A stretch of DNA of 64,000 bases, from sequence record PV287714.1, one strand, 5' to 3'. Position 1 is the stretch's first letter, and every line of letters starts with the position of its first letter. The notes under the pieces were generated by a model. It did no database searches. It was not told where the DNA came from and worked only from the letters and a program-made list of their open reading frames with translations. The DNA comes from Escherichia phage HMD-9. The position numbers and the translations under genes are program-made. Positions 1 through 40,352 of this stretch are shown here, piece after piece.

Positions 1-631
<631 letters not shown>

Positions 632-2290: not shown

Positions 2291-2867
2291 ATTCTCTACA
2301 TTCCTTAACAAATTTTTCTAGTAATAAATCGCTTTCAAAACTAGGATTTTCCACGAATTTATCAAAAAGATCATCAACAATATTCAAGATATTCCTTTTA
2401 CTAAGAATACATTTATTTTCATGCTTCGTTTCAGAGTCAATTATAAGAGTAAAGAAATATTTCTTTCCCTGAAATTTTACTGTAGTATCAATATAAAATA
2501 AATTTGACTTTTGTAAATTACGTTTAAACCATGCGTCGCTTAAACTATAAACACCGAGATAATCAAAATCGTCGTTTAAATAACAAACTGACCATTCAGG
2601 AGAAATGAAATCAGTAAATTCAACATCAAAATCACATGTTAATGAATGAATTGATTCAATACTTTTAATGAGTATTCCAGGGCGTATTAAAGACTTTTTA
2701 CCTCTGGAAAATCTTCCAGAAAGACTTTCATCAGTTTCATATGAAGACCCCCAATAATAATTACGTCCTTCTGCCATACGTTTAAGAGCATTTAGTAATT
2801 GATCTGGAACATCAACATGTCTTTTGAACTCTTCAAACATTGAATTGAAATCACTTTGCATTTTCAT
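2259..2867 (-). CDS. hypothetical protein (e.x accessory block)
   Basis: 202 aa ORF with ATG start; no recognisable motif. Confidence 0.6.
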   Translation of the reverse strand: MKMQSDFNSMFEEFKRHVDVPDQLLNALKRMAEGRNYYWGSSYETDESLSGRFSRGKKSLIRPGILIKSIESIHSLTCDFDVEFTDFISPEWSVCYLNDDFDYLGVYSLSDAWFKRNLQKSNLFYIDTTVKFQGKKYFFTLIIDSETKHENKCILSKRNILNIVDDLFDKFVENPSFESDLLLEKFVKECREYVKAITIPSK

Positions 2868-2888
2868 TCCTATTTACTCCAAGTAATA

Positions 2889-2902
2889 GGGGCCGAAGCC
2901 CC
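2889..2902. repeat. GC hairpin GGGGCCGAAGCCCC (UUCG tetraloop on the minus-strand transcript), copy 1 of 3
   Basis: perfect 5-bp GC stem plus 4-nt loop; identical 14-mer at 43312-43325 and 62630-62643. Confidence 0.6.
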
Positions 2903-2908
2903 TTATCA

Positions 2909-3502
2909 TTATTTCAGAGAATTAATATATTCCTGGACATCGGCAGAGGTAGTTTCAACCCCAGAAATATTGCCGTTAAAAGTTTCAACTCGAGCAAGGG
3001 TATCTTCAATATCAACCTTAGTCAGTGCTGCAATTTCAACTACATCATCGGCAGTACTAATTCCAAGGGCATTTGCCGCACGAGTTTCACGGATATATTC
3101 CAATTTAACTGCAAGTTCTTGGCGAGCATCATCTAACTCAACTACTTTCTTGGCGATTTCAATTCGCATTTCAGCATAACCGTCAGCTTTAGTAGTCAAT
3201 TGCTCAGCTGTTCGACGATATAGCAAACCGAGTTTAGCGTGCATTGTTACATCTTGACCTTCGGAAAGAAGTTTACGAATTTCACGCTCTTTTGATTCGG
3301 CTTGTCGATTCTTTTCAATAACAAGTTCACGAATACGTTTTTCTTCATTAATAGATTTAACAGAAGCAGTTTTTAAGTCTTTAATCTTATCAAGTAGTTT
3401 TGCTGCTGCAGCAGTATACTGTTCTTCAACAGATAGATTTTTAGCCATAGCAGAACCAAGTTTAGTGCGAATAAACTCAACAATTTTCTTCAGTGTGTTC
3501 AT
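2909..3502 (-). CDS. coiled-coil protein, possible PspA/IM30-like
   Basis: 197 aa; ATG with SD AAGGAAA; long charged heptad-like helices ([27 protein letters not shown]..) resembling PspA by eye only. Confidence 0.5.
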
Positions 3503-3546
3503 AGTATTTCCTTAGGTTAATTAAGATTTAAAAATCCGTGAGAATA

Positions 3547-3723
3547 TTATATTTCAAAGAGTTTATAAACTATTTCAACATCTCCTTTTGCCGCTTTATA
3601 ACCTTCAGCCCAAGATACAACCAAGTTTTTATCTGAAGATTCAAAGTCAGGCATTGGACTTTCATCAATGTTCACACAGTATGTTTCTTCATTTTCGTCA
3701 AACCAAATAGTTAAAATAGTCAT
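3547..3723 (-). CDS. small hypothetical protein (58 aa)
   Basis: ORF below the track cutoff; SD GGAGAAATAA before ATG at 3723-3721; MTILTIWFDENEETYCVNIDESPMPDF.. Confidence 0.4.
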   Translation of the reverse strand: MTILTIWFDENEETYCVNIDESPMPDFESSDKNLVVSWAEGYKAAKGDVEIVYKLFEI

Positions 3724-3791
3724 TTATTTCTCCGCTTCTGTGATTGTTTTGATAAATCTATAATAACACCGTCCTTGGCGTTTGTACACAA

Positions 3792-4055
3792 TTATTTCAT
3801 ATTATTGAAATATTCTTCTGCGATTTCGTCGTTATCATGGTAAACTTTAGAAGACAGTTTAACATAACCTTCAGCAGTGAACATGTTAATCACAACCTTT
3901 ACAGTATACCACTGACCGTCTTCATTACCCATTACTGCGTAAGTTTCAAACATCGGATGGTCAGGACCGATAACTTTAATATCATTCACTGTACGACCGA
4001 AATCTTCTGAAACGCATTTCATAAAGAAGTTGAACAGTTCGCCGTAATTATCCAT
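3792..4055 (-). CDS. hypothetical protein
   Basis: ORF-track start 4109 lies inside the upstream promoter; ATG at 4055 follows SD GGAGAATGAA (MDNYGELFNFF..). Confidence 0.5.
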   Translation of the reverse strand: MDNYGELFNFFMKCVSEDFGRTVNDIKVIGPDHPMFETYAVMGNEDGQWYTVKVVINMFTAEGYVKLSSKVYHDNDEIAEEYFNNMK

Positions 4056-4099
4056 TTCATTCTCCAAGTTGTTTTTCTGTATCAGTAGTTGATAGTTGT

Positions 4100-4129
4100 A
4101 TAGTACCACGGAAGAACATGGATGTAAAC
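4100..4129 (-). promoter_or_regulatory. T4 early-type sigma70 promoter (-35 GTTTAC, 18-nt spacer, -10 TACTAT)
   Basis: minus-sense GTTTAC-N18-TACTAT upstream of ORF 3792-4055. Confidence 0.5.
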
Positions 4130-4261
4130 AGTTTTGTGAAAAAAATTTTAAAAAGTTTTGGGGAATTCTAGGGCAGGGAGGGGCAATTAAAGGATAGGAT
4201 AATATATTATAAAGGATAGAAACTAAATGATGCCTAGAGAGGCCCAGAAAGGTCTAGATGC

Positions 4262-4288
4262 CAAAAAAGCCCTATCATTTAGATAGGG
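4262..4288 (-). terminator. rho-independent terminator after ORF 4297-4860
   Basis: hairpin CCCTATC/GATAGGG followed by U-run on the minus-sense transcript. Confidence 0.5.
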
Positions 4289-4296
4289 ATTTAAAA

Positions 4297-4860
4297 TTAT
4301 TTGCTTAGTTTAGTTATTATAGCTTCTGCGGCAGCTTTTAGCTTAGATGCGGTGTTAATACGATTTTTAATTTCAGTATACGCATCGCCAAGAACATCAA
4401 GGCTATCAGAATAAACACTTACACTATTGCGTTCGCTATTTGAAATAGAACCTTTAGTTTTACGATCAAAATCGGTATACACGTCTTGAAGATCGCGGGC
4501 TGCCTTCTTTGCATCATCCAATGCGTCAAGAGCTTTATTCAAAGCATTAACATATTTTTTAGTGTCAAACATATTCTTAGAAATTTTAACAGGTGCACGT
4601 TCAGGAGTAGCTAATGCAGATTTAGGAACCTGAGCGCCAGATGCCAATTTCTTAGAAATTTTGAAAAATGCTTTATTGAATTTATTTTCTTGACTCATTG
4701 TAAAAGAACTATTATCGATGTTGTACATTTCAATAGCTTTAGCTTTCCACTTAAGAAAATCGCCGCGGTCTTTTGGATCCAAGTGGAAGAATACTTTAGT
4801 AAGATCTGCTTCAGATGGTAATTTTGCTGCTTCGGTTAAAAATTCGGCATAGGTTTTCAT
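4297..4860 (-). CDS. internal-protein-like protein with capsid-targeting sequence
   Basis: 187 aa; N-terminus MKTYAEFLTE|AAKL fits the CTS pattern with a gp21-type cleavage context (LxE). Confidence 0.65.
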   Translation of the reverse strand: MKTYAEFLTEAAKLPSEADLTKVFFHLDPKDRGDFLKWKAKAIEMYNIDNSSFTMSQENKFNKAFFKISKKLASGAQVPKSALATPERAPVKISKNMFDTKKYVNALNKALDALDDAKKAARDLQDVYTDFDRKTKGSISNSERNSVSVYSDSLDVLGDAYTEIKNRINTASKLKAAAEAIITKLSK

Positions 4861-4949
4861 TTAAAATCCTTGAAATAATTTATCGGTTGGTTATTAATTA
4901 TTTATTACTTTGTTATTATCCGTAACAGCATTCTCTATGTGATTCAAAC

Positions 4950-4977
4950 TAAAAAGCCCTAACCTTTCGGTCAGGGT
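4950..4977 (-). terminator. rho-independent terminator (GAAA tetraloop hairpin plus U-run)
   Basis: minus-sense CCCUGACC-GAAA-GGUUAGGG then CUUUUU; near-identical to the hairpin at 5509-5536. Confidence 0.6.
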
Positions 4978-4985
4978 TAAGAATG

Positions 4986-5459
4986 TTATTTGATTTGTTT
5001 AGCAGACCAAATGCGGTCTTTAATAATTTTTTGGATGTCTTCAACATACTCTAGGTCATGAGCATGTGGGTTGTCTTTGAAACTATAAGCACGGGCTAAC
5101 TTTTGGCCTTCGGTTTTGATTACTAAAAGCTCTTTAAGGATAGCTTCATATTTAGCGATAATTCCTTTAACAATATTTTTTTCTTGTGCAGCTTTAGGAT
5201 CCGCTTTAGGAGCAGGTTTACCGGAAGGTTTTTCGAAAGCCGCACCAGTAGCAACCAGGCTTTTCCAGGCGGTGGTAACATAGTTACCCACAAAGCCTTC
5301 AGCTCTCATATCGTCGTAGAACTTGTACCGGGATTCGTCAGAAGCATCTTTATAAGAATATTTACCAGCTTTAATAGCAGCAGTTGCTACAGCGCGAACA
5401 TCTGAAGCGGATGCTTCATTTAACGCCACTTCATTTAAAAATTGAGCATATGATTTCAT
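4986..5459 (-). CDS. internal-protein-like protein with capsid-targeting sequence
   Basis: 157 aa; N-terminus MKSYAQFLNE|VALNE fits the CTS pattern. Confidence 0.65.
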   Translation of the reverse strand: MKSYAQFLNEVALNEASASDVRAVATAAIKAGKYSYKDASDESRYKFYDDMRAEGFVGNYVTTAWKSLVATGAAFEKPSGKPAPKADPKAAQEKNIVKGIIAKYEAILKELLVIKTEGQKLARAYSFKDNPHAHDLEYVEDIQKIIKDRIWSAKQIK

Positions 5460-5499
5460 CTTATTTCCTGTTTTAATTCGTGATTTAATACACTACTAT

Positions 5500-5507
5500 A
5501 TTTATAC
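5500..5507 (-). promoter_or_regulatory. T4 late promoter core TATAAATA
   Basis: minus-sense TATAAATA about 40 nt upstream of ATG 5459. Confidence 0.55.
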
Positions 5508-5508
5508 T

Positions 5509-5536
5509 AAAAAGCCCCAACCTTTCGGTCGGGGCT
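5509..5536 (-). terminator. rho-independent terminator ending the tRNA operon
   Basis: minus-sense CCCCGACC-GAAA-GGUUGGGG then CUUUUU. Confidence 0.6.
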
Positions 5537-5584
5537 AAGCCTTGCGGCAACCTTGTCGGGGTTCCACCTGCTAAGGCAAGTGTT

Positions 5585-5846
5585 TGTACGAAACGCCGGG
5601 ATTCGAACCCGGTTATTAAGCAGTTGACGCTACTCAATATTTTAAAAGGCCATATCTCGACCATATCCGAACGTTCCGTCAAAAACGCTACTCGGCTTAC
5701 GGCAAAGATATTTCCTCGAATCGATAATTCGGTGCGCCGTTTCAGCTGTGATAGTAAAGAACCAGAACACAGTAAAACTGTGGGAGGAACTATACTCCAT
5801 GGAACATCAGTCCGACGACTTACCGGTAGCGACCCGGTTTCTTGTT
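5585..5846 (-). ncRNA. ORF-free structured tract inside the tRNA operon; candidate stable small RNA(s) (T4 species 1/2-like)
   Basis: canonical T-arm CCGGGTTCGAATCCCGG at 5596-5612; 3' strand CGTTTCG can pair with TGAAACG about 150 nt upstream; bounded by tRNA-Arg and the operon terminator. Confidence 0.35.
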
Positions 5847-5922
5847 TGGTCGAGGCAGTAGGGGTCGAACCTACGACCTAGGACTTAGAAGGTCCTTGCT
5901 CTTCCTTCTGAGCTATGCCTCG
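5847..5922 (-). tRNA. tRNA-Arg (anticodon UCU)
   Basis: cloverleaf by hand: acceptor CGAGGCA/TGCCTCG, D-arm GCTC..GAGC, anticodon loop CTTCTAA, T-arm GTAGG-TTCGACC-CCTAC, CCA encoded. Confidence 0.85.
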
Positions 5923-5926
5923 GATT

Positions 5927-6001
5927 TGGCGGACATGCATGGATTCGAACCATGGACCAATTGATTAACAGTCAACTGCTCTACCACTGAGCTACACATC
6001 C
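5927..6001 (-). tRNA. tRNA-Asn (anticodon GUU)
   Basis: acceptor GGATGTG/CATGTCC (two G-U pairs), D-arm GCTC-AGTGGTA-GAGC, anticodon loop CTGTTAA, T-arm CATGG-TTCGAAT-CCATG, CCA encoded. Confidence 0.75.
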
Positions 6002-6005
6002 AAAT

Positions 6006-6092
6006 TGGTGGGGAGTGATGGAGTCGAACCACCCGAGTCGCAATGACAATGGATTTACAGTCCACACCGCTACCTCTACGGGATAACTCCCC
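6006..6092 (-). tRNA. tRNA-like gene, probable type-II tRNA-Tyr (anticodon GUA) with irregular D-arm
   Basis: acceptor GGGGAGT/ACTCCCC, anticodon stem-loop TGGA-CTGTAAA-TCCA, long variable arm, T-arm GGTGG-TTCGACT-CCATC, CCA encoded; D-arm pairing is non-canonical. Confidence 0.5.
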
Positions 6093-6101
6093 TAATTAAT
6101 T

Positions 6102-6176
6102 TGGTGGCCCTGGGTGGAATTGAACCACCATCTGGCGATTATGAGTCGCTTGCTTGAACCTTCCAGCTACAGGGCC
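6102..6176 (-). tRNA. tRNA with anticodon CAU (Ile2/lysidine type by T4 position; Met not excluded)
   Basis: acceptor GGCCCTG/CAGGGCC, anticodon loop CTCATAA, T-arm GGTGG-TTCAATT-CCACC, CCA encoded; 1 nt from tRNA-Thr. Confidence 0.8.
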
Positions 6177-6177
6177 T

Positions 6178-6253
6178 TGGTGCTGATTGACGGAATCGAA
6201 CCGCCGACCTTCTCATTACAAGTGAGTTGCTCTACCTACTGAGCTAAATCAGC
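6178..6253 (-). tRNA. tRNA-Thr (anticodon UGU)
   Basis: acceptor GCTGATT/AATCAGC, D-arm GCTC-AGTAGGTA-GAGC, anticodon loop CTTGTAA, CCA encoded. Confidence 0.85.
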
Positions 6254-6258
6254 AAAAC

Positions 6259-6348
6259 TGGCGGAGGCGATAGGATTTGAACCTATGAGTCGCCGGAGCG
6301 ACTGCCGGTTTTCAAGACCGGTGCATTAAACCACTCTGCCACGCCTCC
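6259..6348 (-). tRNA. tRNA-Ser (anticodon UGA), type II
   Basis: acceptor GGAGGCG/CGCCTCC, anticodon loop CTTGAAA, long variable arm, T-arm ATAGG-TTCAAAT-CCTAT, CCA encoded. Confidence 0.85.
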
Positions 6349-6350
6349 AG

Positions 6351-6424
6351 TCTCCGTGGCAGGATTTGAACCTGCGACATTCTGCTCCCAAAGCAGACGC
6401 TCTACCAAACTGAGCTACACGGAG
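6351..6424 (-). tRNA. tRNA-Pro (anticodon UGG)
   Basis: acceptor CTCCGTG/CACGGAG, D-arm GCTC-AGTTTGGTA-GAGC, anticodon loop TTTGGGA, T-arm GCAGG-TTCAAAT-CCTGC; CCA not encoded; 2 nt from tRNA-Ser. Confidence 0.85.
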
Positions 6425-6434
6425 TAAATTAAAT

Positions 6435-6508
<74 letters not shown>

Positions 6509-6513
6509 AAATT

Positions 6514-6600
6514 TGGTGCGAGAAGTGGGACTCGAACCCACAAGGAAATCATTCCGCAGCATTTTAAGTGCTGTGCCTTTACCAATTTGACCATTCTCGC
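6514..6600 (-). tRNA. tRNA-Leu (anticodon UAA), type II
   Basis: acceptor GCGAGAA/TTCTCGC, anticodon stem-loop CAGCA-CTTAAAA-TGCTG, long variable arm, T-arm GTGGG-TTCGAGT-CCCAC, CCA encoded. Confidence 0.85.
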
Positions 6601-6601
6601 G

Positions 6602-6674
6602 CTGGGAATAAAGGACTCGAACCTTTGCATCTAGCAGTCAAAGTGCTATGCCTTACCAACTTGGCTAATTCCCA
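6602..6674 (-). tRNA. tRNA-Gln (anticodon UUG)
   Basis: acceptor TGGGAAT/ATTCCCA, anticodon stem-loop TAGCA-CTTTGAC-TGCTA, T-arm AAAGG-TTCGAGT-CCTTT; CCA not encoded; 1 nt from tRNA-Leu. Confidence 0.85.
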
Positions 6675-6771
6675 ATTATTAACAAAGGCTCTCAAACAAG
6701 AACCCTTGATGATAGAGGGTATTAATCGGTGCGATATGAGTTAATAATAACAAATAATTCTTAAAGCATAT

Positions 6772-7061: not shown

Positions 7062-7445
7062 TCAGCCTTCATCAACAATAGTATGCGTATTGGCATTTAC
7101 GATTTGCCACCAATCAAAGCGATTAGAACCATAATCTGGTTTGTTTTCATTTTCTTTGATAATGTCACGAAGTTCATCTTCAGTAGCGGCTTTCGCGATT
7201 AAATCAGCATATCCACCACGAGGATAATAATTATCACCTGCAAAAAGTAAAAAGTTTGGTTTAATATTATTGAACTCTTCAAGAGTAATAACTTTTCCTG
7301 ATGGTAGTTGAACAATCTCTACATATTTATATCCTAATTTTTGAGCAGCATCTACTGCTTCAAGCAAAGTATCATGAGCCCATCCAATTTGACAACCTGG
7401 CTTTTCAGATGGATTAGCCTGATAATCCGCGTACACTTTATACAT
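7062..7445 (-). CDS. hypothetical protein
   Basis: ORF-track start 7454 is GTG; ATG at 7445 follows SD AGGTGA (MYKVYADYQANPSEK..). Confidence 0.55.
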   Translation of the reverse strand: MYKVYADYQANPSEKPGCQIGWAHDTLLEAVDAAQKLGYKYVEIVQLPSGKVITLEEFNNIKPNFLLFAGDNYYPRGGYADLIAKAATEDELRDIIKENENKPDYGSNRFDWWQIVNANTHTIVDEG

Positions 7446-7446
7446 T

Positions 7447-7632
7447 CTATTCACCTTTAGAAATTTTATCCATAACGATAGCGATTAAACCAATTAAAAA
7501 TGCTACTACAAGTGAAAAAACATTTTCTGCTGTAGTCAATAATCCGCATATAAATCCAACAAACATTGAAAAACTAAAAGCGGAAGCAGAAATTGCAATA
7601 GCAACATTTCGAATTAATTCACAACGTTTCAT
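7447..7632 (-). CDS. small hydrophobic membrane protein (61 aa)
   Basis: SD GGAGAATAAA before ATG; two hydrophobic segments (AIAISASAFSFSMFVGFICGLL, VFSLVVAFLIGLIAIVM). Confidence 0.5.
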   Translation of the reverse strand: MKRCELIRNVAIAISASAFSFSMFVGFICGLLTTAENVFSLVVAFLIGLIAIVMDKISKGE

Positions 7633-7651
7633 TTTATTCTCCTCTGTAGTT

Positions 7652-7679
7652 GATAGGGTAATAGTATCACTACCCTATC
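7652..7679. repeat. stem-loop GATAGGGTA-N10-TACCCTATC of a promoter/stem-loop cassette, copy 1 (complete)
   Basis: perfect 9-bp inverted repeat around ATAGTATCAC; partial copies at 8033-8060 and 8372-8399. Confidence 0.6.
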
Positions 7680-7690
7680 TAAAAGTAAAC
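7661..7690 (-). promoter_or_regulatory. T4 early-type promoter (GTTTAC-N18-TACTAT)
   Basis: minus-sense -35 GTTTAC (7690-7685) and -10 TACTAT (7666-7661) upstream of ORF 7447-7632. Confidence 0.55.
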
Positions 7691-7702
7691 TGTTTTTATA
7701 AA

Positions 7703-8011
7703 CTATTTTATTCCGCGTGATGCAATTGTATTCTGTCGTTTAGCACCAGTTTGTTTAAAGTCATGATTGTCGATTTGATCGGTACGAGCAACTCCGAATG
7801 ATGATTTAATCTTAGCTTTAGATCCTTTAGTTATAGAAATAAACATCTCGGAAGCCCCTTTCTTAAAGTCCGAAGCAATTACTTCAACACCGTTCTTAGC
7901 AAGTGACTTCAGAATTGCCTCCGCGTACTCATCATCAAGACTCGCTTGAGTATTAATAACGAATGTCTTTGGTGCAGCCGCTTCATTGATAAATTCTTTA
8001 AATGTTTTCAT
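7703..8011 (-). CDS. internal-protein-like protein with capsid-targeting sequence (ipI locus)
   Basis: 102 aa; MKTFKEFINE|AAAPKTF fits the CTS pattern; lies between the tRNA operon and 57B where T4 carries ipI. Confidence 0.6.
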   Translation of the reverse strand: MKTFKEFINEAAAPKTFVINTQASLDDEYAEAILKSLAKNGVEVIASDFKKGASEMFISITKGSKAKIKSSFGVARTDQIDNHDFKQTGAKRQNTIASRGIK

Positions 8012-8041
8012 TTTATTTTCCTAATTAATTTTGATGAGATA

Positions 8042-8071
8042 ATAGTATCACTACCCTATCTAAAAGTAAAC
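8042..8071 (-). promoter_or_regulatory. T4 early-type promoter (GTTTAC-N18-TACTAT), cassette copy 2
   Basis: same spacing and hexamers as 7661-7690; upstream of ORF 7703-8011. Confidence 0.55.
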
Positions 8072-8344
8072 TCATTTTAAATAAATTGCGTATTTTTTAT
8101 AGCCACCAGGCTCGTGTCGAAGACCCCTATCATTAGCAAAACGCTCAATGTTGTTAATTTGATTCTGGTCAAGTTCAGAGATGTCAAACACGAAATAGTT
8201 ACGTTTGTTACCAACTGTTACATAGTCAGTTAAATCAATACCATATAGGTAATTGATGTCAGCAATCATAGTCTTGACAGCTTTGCTAATTTTTACTTTT
8301 TCGTTAAAAGTAGCTTCATTGATAAATTCTTTAAATGTTTTCAT
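8072..8344 (-). CDS. internal-protein-like protein with capsid-targeting sequence (ipI locus)
   Basis: ORF-track start 8356 is TTG; ATG at 8344 follows SD GGAGAATAAA giving MKTFKEFINE|ATFNEK.. Confidence 0.6.
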   Translation of the reverse strand: MKTFKEFINEATFNEKVKISKAVKTMIADINYLYGIDLTDYVTVGNKRNYFVFDISELDQNQINNIERFANDRGLRHEPGGYKKYAIYLK

Positions 8345-8380
8345 TTTATTCTCCAATCACTCATTTGTTTTGATAGGGTA

Positions 8381-8410
8381 ATAGTATCACAACTAAAACC
8401 CCGTGTAAAC
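8381..8410 (-). promoter_or_regulatory. T4 early-type promoter (GTTTAC-N18-TACTAT), cassette copy 3
   Basis: same spacing and hexamers; upstream of ORF 8072-8344. Confidence 0.55.
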
Positions 8411-8422
8411 AACTTTGTGAAA

Positions 8423-9119
<697 letters not shown>

Positions 9120-9120
<1 letters not shown>

Positions 9121-9845
9121 TATAGTACCTTTAGTGTATTTTTAATTTTAGAAAAAAGTTCTTCAAGAGAACCATCGTTTGTAATTACTAAATCGCCATC
9201 ACGAATTGGCAATCCAGCTTCTGTAATATGAGTATCATTGGATTTTTGACCAGGACGAACTACATGAATTACTGTAGCACCCATCGCCCTAGCCGCATCC
9301 ATTTCATGATCTTGACGAGTATCAGGAACGATATAGTAATCATAGCCTGAGTTAAATTTATCAAGATAATCTAAAGCAAATAATTTTACCCAATACATGC
9401 GGTCGAAGTTATTAACAATCAAATCCGTACCTAGGGCTTGCATCAGACGACGGACTGACCATTGATCTTCAATATTATTTATAACGTCAGCAATCTTGTT
9501 AAATGCTACGAAAGTAACTGATTCTTTTCCTTCGTCATCAAAAACAAACACGCCTTTAATTGGGCTTTTACTATTAAGATAGCAAAATGCTTGTTCCATA
9601 ATCGTAATTACTTCTAATTTAGTCAGATTCAAATTAGTCTCACGATCATAGTCAATTCCTTCAAATTCTTTACGAGTTAAGCAAGGATAGTCAGTGTTTG
9701 TTGCAAATACTCCCCATGCATAAGCCAATGCATCTTTAATAGGACCAGCAAGTTGATATTTAACTGCAGAATAATTTTCCATGATAAAATCTGCGGTAGT
9801 ATCTTTTCCACTACGCTTTACACCACTTAAAAAGATTAGTTTCAT
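9120..9845 (-). CDS. 1: deoxynucleoside monophosphate kinase (gp1)
   Basis: 241 aa; P-loop GVKRSGKDT; size and order match T4 gene 1. Confidence 0.9.
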
Positions 9846-36865: not shown

Positions 36866-37290
36866 TGCTTCTGATCCCTGAAACTCATGAATTAGTTCTC
36901 GAGCATGTCGAAGCACTTATTCCTGAAGCACAGGGTCGCTTTGACGAATTGTCTTCTGCTTTAAATAAAGACGATATAAATACAATTGTCGAGAATATGC
37001 TTGATGATGAAACTGATTTAGCAGTTGCATTAGCTTCTATTAATGAAAATATGCCGTTAAATGAATTCATTGTTAAGCATGTTTCAGCTCGTGGTGAAAT
37101 TACACGTACTAAAGACCGCAAAACACGCGAACGTAATGCATTTCAAACCACTGGGCTGTCTAAAGCAAAACGTAGACAAATTGCTCGCAAAGCTACCAAA
37201 ACGAAGATTGCCAATCCAGCAGGTCAATCTCGTGCTCAGCGTAAGCGTAAAAAAGCTCTTAAACGCCGTAAAGCATTAGGATTAAGCTAA
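36865..37290 (+). CDS. 68: gp68 prohead core protein
   Basis: 141 aa; basic C-terminus; size and order match T4. Confidence 0.8.
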
Positions 37291-37928
37291 TGAATGAACC
37301 CCAATTACTAATTGAAACTTGGGGTCAACCTGGCGAAATTATTGATGGTGTGCCAATGCTTGAATCCCACGATGGAAAAGACTTAGGTTTAAAGCCGGGT
37401 TTATACATCGAAGGAATATTCATGCAAGCAGAAGTCGTCAATAGAAATAAACGTCTTTATCCAAAACGCATATTAGAAAAAGCGGTAAAAGACTATATCA
37501 ATGAGCAAGTTTTAACTAAACAAGCTCTCGGAGAATTAAATCATCCTCCACGCGCTAATGTTGACCCGATGCAAGCCGCTATCATTATAGAAGATATGTG
37601 GTGGAAAGGAAATGACGTATACGGACGAGCTCGTGTTATTGAAGGTGACCACGGTCCTGGAGATAAATTAGCAGCTAATATTCGTGCCGGATGGATTCCA
37701 GGAGTTTCTTCTCGTGGATTAGGTTCATTGACTGACACAAATAAAGGTTATCGTATCGTAAACGAAGGATTCAAATTAACTGTAGGTGTTGATGCAGTAT
37801 GGGGTCCAAGTGCTCCAGATGCATGGGTAACTCCTAAGGAAATTACCGAATCACAGACGGCGGAAGCCGATACAAGTGCCGATGACGCCTATATGGCTCT
37901 CGCAGAGGCCATGAAAAAAGCGTTATAA
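37290..37928 (+). CDS. 21: gp21 prohead core protease
   Basis: 212 aa; size and order match T4. Confidence 0.9.
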   Translation: MNEPQLLIETWGQPGEIIDGVPMLESHDGKDLGLKPGLYIEGIFMQAEVVNRNKRLYPKRILEKAVKDYINEQVLTKQALGELNHPPRANVDPMQAAIIIEDMWWKGNDVYGRARVIEGDHGPGDKLAANIRAGWIPGVSSRGLGSLTDTNKGYRIVNEGFKLTVGVDAVWGPSAPDAWVTPKEITESQTAEADTSADDAYMALAEAMKKAL

Positions 37929-37958: not shown

Positions 37959-38768
37959 ATGCTTAAAGAACAACTGATTGCTGAAGCGCAAAAAATTGAT
38001 GCTTCCGTTGCTCTTGATAGTATTTTCGAATCAGTTAGTATTTCTCCGGAAGCAAAAGAAACTTTCGGCACTGTATTCGAAGCTACCGTCAAGCAGCACG
38101 CCGTTAAATTAGCTGAATCCCATATCGCTAAAATTGCTGAAAAAGCAGAAGAAGAAGTAGAAAAAAATAAAGAAGAAGCCGAAGAAAAAGCTGAGAAGAA
38201 AATCGCTGAGCAAGCTTCTAAATTCATTGACCATCTTGCGAAAGAATGGCTCGCTGAAAATAAATTAGCAGTTGATAAAGGCATCAAAGCCGAATTGTTT
38301 GAATCCATGCTTGGTGGATTAAAAGAGCTCTTTGTTGAACACAACGTTGTTGTTCCAGAAGAATCAGTTGATATTGTAGCTGAAATGGAAGAAGAGCTGC
38401 AAGAACATAAAGAAGAATCAGCTCGTCTGTTCGAAGAACTCAATATGCGCGACGCATATATCAATTATGTGCAGCGTGAAGTGGCATTGAGCGAAAGTAC
38501 TAAAGATCTGACTGAGTCTCAAAAAGAAAAAGTCTCTGCTCTGGTCGAAGGTATGGATTATTCAGATGAATTCTCAAATAAATTGAGTGCCATCGTAGAA
38601 ATGGTGAAGAAGTCTAATAAAGATGAAAGCACTATTACTGAGGGTATAAATACTCCTGATACTGAAGCAGCCGGACTGAATTTCGTCACTGAAGCTGTAG
38701 AAGATAAAGCTGCACCTGGTGCAGAAGATATTGTAAGTGTATATGCGAAAGTCGCATCTCGTTTCTAA
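37959..38768 (+). CDS. 22: gp22 prohead scaffold protein
   Basis: 269 aa, highly charged coiled-coil; size and order match T4. Confidence 0.9.
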   Translation: MLKEQLIAEAQKIDASVALDSIFESVSISPEAKETFGTVFEATVKQHAVKLAESHIAKIAEKAEEEVEKNKEEAEEKAEKKIAEQASKFIDHLAKEWLAENKLAVDKGIKAELFESMLGGLKELFVEHNVVVPEESVDIVAEMEEELQEHKEESARLFEELNMRDAYINYVQREVALSESTKDLTESQKEKVSALVEGMDYSDEFSNKLSAIVEMVKKSNKDESTITEGINTPDTEAAGLNFVTEAVEDKAAPGAEDIVSVYAKVASRF

Positions 38769-38786: not shown

Positions 38787-40352
38787 ATGACTATCAAAAC
38801 TAAAGCTGAACTTTTGAACAAATGGAAGCCATTACTGGAAGGTGAAGGTTTACCGGAAATTGCTAATAGCAAACAAGCGATTATCGCTAAAATCTTTGAA
38901 AACCAGGAAAAAGATTTCCAGACAGCTCCAGAGTACAAAGACGAAAAAATCGCTCAGGCGTTCGGTTCTTTCTTAACAGAAGCTGAAATCGGTGGTGACC
39001 ACGGTTACAATGCTACTAACATCGCTGCAGGTCAGACTTCTGGCGCAGTAACTCAGATTGGCCCAGCTGTTATGGGTATGGTACGTCGTGCTATTCCTAA
39101 CCTGATTGCTTTCGACATTTGCGGTGTTCAGCCGATGAACAGCCCGACTGGCCAGGTATTCGCACTGCGCGCAGTATACGGTAAAGACCCGGTCGCTTCC
39201 GGTGCTAAAGAAGCATTCCACCCAATGTATGGTCCAGATGCAATGTTCTCTGGTCAGGGTGCTGCTAAGAAATTCGCTGCTTTGAAAGCAAGTGATACTC
39301 TTGAAGTTGGAACTATTTACACCCACTTCTTCCAGGACACTGGTACTGTGTATCTGCAAGCTACAGAAGTTAAGCAAATTGATACTAGTGCAACTGACGC
39401 AGCTAAATTAGATGCTGAAATTAAGAAACAAATGGAAGCTGGTGTACTGGTAGAAATCGCTGAAGGTATGGCTACTTCTGTCGCTGAACTTCAGGAAAGT
39501 TTCAACGGTTCTACCGATAACCCATGGAATGAAATGGGCTTCCGTATCGATAAACAAGTTATCGAAGCTAAATCTCGCCAGCTGAAAGCTGCTTACTCTA
39601 TCGAATTAGCACAAGACCTCCGCGCTGTTCACGGTATGGATGCTGATGCTGAACTGTCTGGTATTCTGGCTACAGAAATCATGCTGGAAATTAACCGTGA
39701 AGTTGTTGATTGGATTAACTACTCAGCTCAGGTTGGTAAATCTGGTATGACCCTGACTCCGGGTTCTAAAGCTGGTGTATTTGACTTCCAGGATCCGATT
39801 GATATTCGTGGTGCTCGCTGGGCGGGTGAATCCTTTAAAGCTCTGTTGTTCCAGATTGACAAAGAAGCAGTTGAAATTGCTCGTCAGACTGGTCGTGGTG
39901 AAGGTAACTTCATTATCGCTTCCCGTAACGTAGTTAACGTTCTGGCTTCAGTTGATACCGGCATTTCTTATGCTGCACAGGGTCTGGCTACCGGCTTTAA
40001 CACTGATACTACCAAGTCAGTATTTGCTGGTGTTCTGGGTGGTAAATACCGTGTATATATCGACCAGTATGCTAAACAGGATTATTTCACTGTAGGTTAT
40101 AAAGGTCCGAACGAAATGGATGCTGGTATTTACTATGCTCCATATGTAGCTCTGACTCCGCTGCGTGGTTCCGATCCGAAGAACTTCCAACCAGTAATGG
40201 GATTCAAAACTCGTTACGGTATCGGTATCAACCCATTTGCAGAATCCGCTGCTCAGGCTCCGGCTTCTCGCATCCAGAGCGGTATGCCTTCTATTCTGAA
40301 TAGCCTTGGTAAAAACGCTTACTTCCGCCGTGTATATGTTAAAGGTATCTAA
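38787..40352 (+). CDS. 23: gp23 major capsid protein
   Basis: 521 aa; size and order match T4. Confidence 0.97.
   Translation: MTIKTKAELLNKWKPLLEGEGLPEIANSKQAIIAKIFENQEKDFQTAPEYKDEKIAQAFGSFLTEAEIGGDHGYNATNIAAGQTSGAVTQIGPAVMGMVRRAIPNLIAFDICGVQPMNSPTGQVFALRAVYGKDPVASGAKEAFHPMYGPDAMFSGQGAAKKFAALKASDTLEVGTIYTHFFQDTGTVYLQATEVKQIDTSATDAAKLDAEIKKQMEAGVLVEIAEGMATSVAELQESFNGSTDNPWNEMGFRIDKQVIEAKSRQLKAAYSIELAQDLRAVHGMDADAELSGILATEIMLEINREVVDWINYSAQVGKSGMTLTPGSKAGVFDFQDPIDIRGARWAGESFKALLFQIDKEAVEIARQTGRGEGNFIIASRNVVNVLASVDTGISYAAQGLATGFNTDTTKSVFAGVLGGKYRVYIDQYAKQDYFTVGYKGPNEMDAGIYYAPYVALTPLRGSDPKNFQPVMGFKTRYGIGINPFAESAAQAPASRIQSGMPSILNSLGKNAYFRRVYVKGI

Follow-up and report, generated by a model that had tools for sequence, protein, structure and literature searches.

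The window analysed here is the whole 64,000-nucleotide stretch of Escherichia phage HMD-9 (PV287714.1). Two small ORFs were confirmed on its minus strand, reading 8344→8072 (90 aa) and 8011→7703 (102 aa), and they lie side by side between gene 57B and tRNA.4. The genes of the locus are listed here in the order in which they are read.

8423..8878 (-), gene 57B, left flank; encodes the anti-CBASS protein Acb1 (PF23474, E 2.6e-60)
8072..8344 (-), ip9 gene, 90 aa; ATG 8344-8342, stop TGA 8072-8074
7703..8011 (-), ip7 gene, 102 aa; ATG 8011-8009, stop TAG 7703-7705
7447..7632 (-), tRNA.4, right flank; small predicted membrane protein (phrog_1692)

The source phage is a Tequatrovirus (T4-like): region 7400-8900 is 98.5% identical to that of Escherichia phage 236Ecol005PP, and the region has matches in 821 phage records. 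By synteny, the pair occupies the slot of T4 ipI, as the first-pass annotation had stated (the minus strand had gone unstated there). The order 57B, IP genes, tRNA.4 is common to T4, T2, RB15, RB32 and UFV-AREG1 in a synteny comparison, and the IP genes held in the slot are as follows.

T4: IpI
T2: Ip5-Ip7
UFV-AREG1: IpI-Ip9-Ip7-Ip8
RB32: Ip5-Ip9-Ip7
RB15: Ip5-Ip9-Ip7-Ip8
HMD-9 window: Ip9-Ip7

The 102-aa ORF is identified by its sequence as ip7. The protein is 100% identical to Ip7 of RB32, 99% to that of T2 and 98.9% to that of RB15, and it matches phrog_2667 (E 2e-41, residues 1-102). Homologues occur in 283 phage records, down to roughly 47% identity in T4-like phages of Klebsiella and Enterobacter. 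An exhaustive HMMER search of 1.84 billion representatives returned three clusters, all T4-like, and thus no relatives of Ip7 outside the T4-like phages and none that lack the capsid-targeting leader (CTS) described below.

The 90-aa ORF is likewise assigned, from its protein matches, to ip9. Its identity to RB15 Ip9 is 85.6% when the full length is compared and 87.5% in the mature region (range to RB15 and RB33 Ip9 85.6-88%); it is 100% identical to PP434423 and to the 236Ecol005PP protein, and has homologues in 182 records. It matches phrog_7673 (E 2e-53, residues 1-90), which, like phrog_2667, is labelled 'internal head protein' in PHROG. The start was placed at ATG 8344, which has a GGAG Shine-Dalgarno sequence upstream and is the start annotated in RB15, RB32 and 236Ecol005PP; for both reasons it was preferred to the TTG at 8356 that opens the longer Ip9 of the ORF list. 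Searches of Ip7 and Ip9 against Pfam, NCBIfam and PADLOC gave nothing above noise, and a PDB sequence search with profiles of the two families gave no significant match.

Comparison of ip7 with its RB32 counterpart shows 13 synonymous and 0 nonsynonymous differences, with an omega of 0-0.05. The neighbouring ip9 evolves faster, at an omega of 0.3-0.4; this is above the value for ip7 and below 1, and we do not claim positive selection on Ip9. Both are genuine genes under purifying selection. The AlphaFold model of Ip9 is confident (mean pLDDT 89.7), with a predicted leader helix followed by an alpha-beta-beta-alpha-beta-beta domain. That of Ip7 is moderate (pLDDT 64), with a beta-alpha-beta-beta core at about 84 and a predicted disordered, basic, K/R-rich C-terminal tail at residues 76-102.

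The two ORFs could in principle be genes in decay, or reading frames that arose by chance between 57B and tRNA.4; many GenBank records do label them 'hypothetical protein', and the absence of a Pfam or NCBIfam match would fit. We give this reading almost no weight: the proteins are conserved over their full length across about 280 phage records for Ip7 and 180 for Ip9, and this, with the substitution pattern just described, refutes it. Both genes also have good Shine-Dalgarno sequences and dedicated promoters, and the model predicted for Ip9 is confident.

Leader peptides and processing signals

Both proteins begin with the same ten residues, MKTFKEFINE, as had been noted from the translations, and the identity extends to the DNA, where 32 nt, counted from the ATG, are the same. 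These 32 nt lie within a 42-nt repeat (98% identical, family D1) which also covers the ribosome-binding region. A ten-residue N-terminus common to two adjacent proteins cannot be attributed to chance. The leaders and the relevant head genes of the window are listed here.

8315..8344 (-), CTS of Ip9, codons 1-10, MKTFKEFINE; gp21 motif I8-N9-E10, then Ala11
7982..8011 (-), CTS of Ip7, codons 1-10, MKTFKEFINE; gp21 motif I-N-E, then Ala
37290..37928 (+), gp21 prohead protease, expected to cleave off the CTS (Peptidase_S77, E 1.5e-111)
37959-38768, gp22 scaffold (T4_CASP, E 5.5e-89)
38787-40352, gp23 (Gp23, E 5e-122)

The first 10 residues of T4 IPIII are sufficient for packaging, including that of foreign proteins; positions 4 and 7 of the CTS control targeting, positions 8 and 10 control processing, and gp21 cuts after L/I-x-E (PMC9026906). 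Ip7 and Ip9 both agree with these rules: each has F4, F7, I8 and E10, and Ala comes next. The first seven residues of T4 IPI are likewise MKTFKEF, which gives it F4 and F7, and in PDB 2jub IPI* begins directly after an ITE/A site (here and below the slash marks the cleavage position). In orthologue alignments the leader varies at positions 4 (Y/F), 5 (K/Q/N) and 9 (N/S/A/T), while every CTS-bearing orthologue aligned has E6, F7, I8 and E10.

The Ip7 precursor starts MKTFKEFINE/AAAPK, giving a predicted mature Ip7* of 92 aa, 9.9 kDa and pI 9.65; the Ip9 precursor starts MKTFKEFINE/ATFNEK, giving a predicted mature Ip9* of 80 aa, 9.3 kDa and pI 8.9. Both predicted products are small and basic, resembling IPI* and IPII*. 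There is a second I-x-E motif in Ip9 (I55-S56-E57), located inside the folded domain. In the literature consulted we found no report of processed Ip7 or Ip9 in mature heads, although name searches are swamped by inositol-phosphate papers.

After the leader the resemblance ends. All-vs-all BLASTP of the mature regions (E<=10) gave no alignment between Ip7 and Ip9, which bears out the earlier description of complete divergence, and only noise against T4 IPI, IPII and IPIII. The first-pass annotation had reserved the term ordinary orthologues for mature regions closely matching those three proteins. No such match exists, so to the letter the reservation does not apply; in spirit it does, as the two genes are ordinary orthologues of other named IPs. 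Its proposal that these are CTS-leader internal-protein genes belonging to a diversified set is supported by the agreement with the CTS and gp21 rules, the orthology to Ip7 and Ip9, and the PHROG label.

Promoter and hairpin cassettes

Three repeats of approximately 49 nt (family D2) are present at the locus, each of which carries, on the minus strand, a TTTAC(A/T)-N17-TACTAT promoter overlapping a hairpin.

8370..8418 (-), cassette upstream of ip9; promoter TTTACA-N17-TACTAT 8409->8381; hairpin dG -14.2 kcal/mol, z -2.55
8031..8079 (-), cassette between ip9 and ip7; promoter TTTACT-N17-TACTAT 8070->8042, directly after the ip9 stop; degenerate hairpin, dG -7.3, z -0.6
7650..7698 (-), cassette between ip7 and tRNA.4, the D2 reference copy; promoter TTTACT-N17-TACTAT 7689->7661
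7679-7652 (-), perfect 12-bp hairpin in the cassette downstream of ip7; dG -16.4 kcal/mol, z -4.35

The copy at 8031-8079 is 90% identical to that at 7650-7698. All three promoters fit the T-even PeSL promoter consensus, TTTACW-N17-TAYWAT (PMC4122927), and the promoter scan itself flags the copy upstream of ip9. The arrangement resembles that of the PeSL (promoter-early stem-loop) mobile cassettes of T4-type phages (Arbiol et al. 2010; Comeau et al. 2014), in which a repeated early promoter of this consensus and a hairpin likewise flank small variable genes; as a difference, one of the three HMD-9 hairpins is degenerate. Arbiol et al. (2010) regarded the elements at the T-even IP loci as analogues, not homologues, of the RB49 PeSLs, being AT-rich and having weaker stems (PMC2839356).

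Alignment with RB32 and RB15 shows that the HMD-9 locus corresponds to that of RB32 except for the Ip5 cassette, which is cleanly absent, while Ip8 is an additional gene in RB15. The genes present in HMD-9, their order (57B-Ip9-Ip7-tRNA.4), the flanking direct repeats and the promoter cassettes all match. The loci differ in that the Ip5 cassette of both phages and the Ip8 of RB15 are missing from HMD-9, and in the leader of Ip9, which is MKTFKEFINE in HMD-9 and MKTYQEFISE in RB32 and RB15. The nucleotide differences in ip9 are tightly clustered in this leader (8315-8344, compared with 1167-1200 of the retrieved RB32 segment), where the HMD-9 DNA is the same as the leader DNA of the adjacent ip7; the remainder of the gene is about 95% identical. 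Because the differences cluster in the leader within an otherwise similar gene, the leader appears to have been gene-converted or recombined within the cassette, and the sequence comparison suggests that it arose by gene conversion from the adjacent Ip7 cassette. A locus-shuffling model was reportedly proposed in 1994 and again in 2010, and a leader conversion in HMD-9 would fit it. The repeated units of promoter, hairpin, ribosome-binding site and CTS may act as homology handles for the swapping, loss and conversion of IP genes between related phages.

No late promoter (TATAAATA) was found between 57B and tRNA.4; the nearest upstream on the minus strand lies within gene 1, at 9476-9483. To be expressed while proheads assemble, the two genes would therefore rely on continued early-type or read-through transcription. 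A consensus scan found no intrinsic terminators within 7300-8600.

Proposed role of Ip7 and Ip9

For ip7 and ip9 the analysis establishes the identity of the genes, their orthology, CTS features and cassettes and the purifying selection on them, and it shows that gp21 and gp22 are present. T4 provides the analogy for their function. Its Ip1, Ip2 and Ip3 are injected with the DNA, each inhibits a different variant of the GmrSD-type type IV nucleases, and they are mutually unrelated apart from the leader (PMC12373910; PMC4437046); the ipI locus has been described as a source of diverse anti-GmrSD proteins (PMC4437046). We consider it probable that ip9 and ip7 are genes of this hyperplastic locus whose products are packaged by means of the CTS, cleaved by gp21, co-injected and directed against host defences. 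That the two proteins are packaged, cleaved and injected, and that they act against defences, is inferred.

The steps would be as follows. The precursors would be expressed from the early-type promoter of each gene, probably with a contribution from read-through transcripts, and the CTS would attach them to the prohead's gp22 scaffolding core. The gp21 prohead protease would then cut after Glu10 (I-x-E/A), leaving the mature Ip7* and Ip9*, of about 9-10 kDa, in the head. On infection these would be ejected with the DNA into the cell, and each would disable a host defence ahead of any phage gene expression. By analogy with Ip1, Ip2 and Ip3, the likeliest targets would be certain variants of the type IV, GmrSD-like nucleases, which are modification-dependent.

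A close counterpart in T4 is IPI/IPI* (PDB 2jub), an inhibitor of GmrSD, the type IV nuclease of E. coli CT596. It occupies the same slot between 57B and tRNA.4, and it resembles Ip7 and Ip9 in its first seven residues, in yielding a small basic mature protein and in a gp21 site ending E/A. IPII and IPIII (Ip2 and Ip3; inhibitors of GmrSD-ECOR21 and GmrSD-ECOR17) have a CTS built in a similar way (MKTYQEFIAE/A, compared with MKTFKEFINE/A) and the package-cleave-inject logic would be the same; they differ in being encoded at a locus near denV and e and in having mature sequences unrelated to Ip7 and Ip9. Known targets are so far limited to Ip1, Ip2 and Ip3, and all are GmrSD-type nucleases. We detected no sequence or fold likeness between Ip7 or Ip9 and the mature regions of these three. 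T2 is restricted by both GmrSD-ECOR21 and GmrSD-ECOR17 (PMC12373910), although it encodes an Ip7 99% identical to that of HMD-9. It follows that Ip7 does not neutralise either of these nucleases, and if Ip7 does inhibit a GmrSD, its target is some other variant.

Further information on Ip9 comes from its relatives. Unrelated phages encode clear homologues of its mature domain (residues ~21-90) that lack a CTS. Stand-alone Ip9-domain proteins of 72-74 aa are present in the Guernseyvirinae phage CR01 (2507-2725 of the retrieved segment) and in the Seuratvirus KS_A3 (2492-2716); these two genes were inspected, and both sit among small genes without known function. In the Ackermannviridae phage YX22 the domain forms the C-terminal ~90 residues of a modular protein of 972 aa (2625-5543(-) of the retrieved segment), in which the N-terminus is conserved and the rest varies, and which resembles a modular 'polyvalent' protein. 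About 25 further Ip9-domain proteins of 63-78 aa, also without a CTS, were found in metagenomes.

The restriction of T2, the lack of a late promoter, the internal I55-S56-E57 site in Ip9 and these CTS-less homologues, which work without being packaged, count against the proposed mechanism. The promoter result and the homologues bear on the possibility that Ip7 and Ip9 are early cytoplasmic proteins, for takeover or anti-defence, in which the N-terminus is kept mainly as a part of the recombination cassette and not for packaging. Each gene has its own early-type promoter and none has a late one; the leader DNA identity runs through the ribosome-binding region, and the Ip9 leader was apparently gene-converted from Ip7; and Guernseyvirinae and Seuratvirus, for example, have the domain as a stand-alone protein that lacks a CTS. 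Against this, divergent orthologues keep precisely the residues needed for targeting and cleavage (an aromatic at 4, F7, I8 and E10) while other positions vary, and the 10-residue CTS of IPIII packages foreign proteins on its own (PMC9026906). In addition, all Ip9-domain homologues of T4-like phages carry some 20 extra N-terminal residues that are absent from the CTS-less ones. We therefore regard a purely cytoplasmic function as improbable.

Only slightly better is the chance that the two proteins are mainly structural head contents: abundant, small and basic, they would lack a specific target in the host and would instead aid scaffold assembly, or neutralise the charge of the packaged DNA and organise it. 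The basic pI values of both mature forms and the predicted disordered K/R-rich tail of Ip7 are consistent with such a role, and neither model fold suggests an inhibitor. In T4 there are ~360 copies of each IP per head, and loss of IPIII slows head assembly; however, T4 without all three IPs grows on laboratory strains (PMC9026906), and specific nuclease targets have now been assigned to all three (PMC12373910). A generic filler would leave unexplained why unrelated sequences replace one another at the locus and why T4, T2, RB15 and HMD-9 carry differing sets of IPs, and the Ip9 domain is also present in phages that do not package it. An injected anti-defence role for Ip7 and Ip9 thus remains our preferred reading.

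A more far-reaching proposal, which we put forward tentatively and rate as possible but on balance unlikely, is that the Ip9 mature domain (PHROG 7673) is a mobile anti-defence module common to unrelated phage families, to which the T4-like phages have added a CTS plus linker of ~20 residues, so that the domain arrives pre-made with the DNA. If so, Ip9 would illustrate the conversion of a counter-defence protein expressed de novo into an injected one, and its target would be a defence common to the hosts of all these phage groups. Several of the phage groups that have the Ip9 domain have hypermodified DNA, which hints that the target of the module could be a modification-dependent nuclease. 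The CTS-less relatives offer a simple comparative handle on the advantage of pre-packaging. Ip7 is widespread, strongly constrained and present in T2, and Ip9 is faster evolving and has CTS-less relatives; both are therefore sensible candidates for target screens in wild Enterobacteria.

Earlier work on IP loci and other CTS-bearing genes in the window

The polymorphic ipI locus, with Ip5, Ip7, Ip8 and Ip9, is said to have been described by Repoila and colleagues in 1994. The genes ip7 and ip9 and the polymorphism of the locus have thus long been on record, in publications and in GenBank alike, and annotation pipelines already call the two proteins internal head proteins, so that the finding has little discovery value. 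At least 10 Ips have been reported by Repoila et al. (PMC12373910), and by 2007 the tally of IP variants exceeded 30, all falling within two highly variable loci that carry PeSL-like elements (PMC2839356). Because Ip7 and Ip9 are orthologues of named proteins and the variable IP loci are already published, what we report for ip7 and ip9 at the ipI locus is a correct rediscovery of something already known. Three results go beyond the literature that we consulted and are small additions: the CTS-less Ip9 relatives, an Ip7/Ip9 chimera and a third CTS locus.

The third locus emerged when all six frames of the 64 kb were scanned with a CTS pattern. Exactly five N-termini matched, which is also the number of CTS-leader genes counted previously, and all five lie on the minus strand within the first 8.4 kb. 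They belong to the ORFs at 1-110 (partial), 4297-4860, 4986-5459, 7703-8011 and 8072-8344. Those additional to ip7 and ip9 are described here.

4986-5459 (-), 157 aa, CTS MKSYAQFLNE/V; phrog_2280, 'unknown function'
4297-4860 (-), 187 aa, CTS MKTYAEFLTE/A; phrog_2280, 'unknown function'
1..110 (-), fifth CTS ORF, N-terminus only, just downstream of gene e; runs off the window

The ORFs at 4297-4860 and 4986-5459 are paralogous and lie between an e.8-like gene and the tRNA cluster. The region 4297-5459 is a third CTS locus, outside the two classical IP loci. The 187-aa ORF matches 164 Tequatrovirus records (for example RB14ncORF136c), and in the 25 matches listed it is hypothetical or unannotated; T4 and 236Ecol005PP do not have these paralogues. 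The partial ORF at 1-110 is not T4 ipIII. Its first mature residues weakly resemble RB15 Ip5 (41.7% over 24 aa), and at the equivalent position downstream of e, 236Ecol005PP has an unnamed ORF of 93 aa.

The tRNA cluster at 5500-6700(-) is like those of 236Ecol005PP and RB14 (ten tRNAs, including Asn, Tyr and Met/Ile) and unlike that of T4, where the counterpart of this region carries segB, rnaC and rnaD.

The chimera is a 77-aa protein of OLB35 annotated as 'ip7 protein', which appears to join Ip7 residues ~28-72 to Ip9 residues ~58-90. It represents either recombination between the adjacent genes or an artefact of annotation or assembly.
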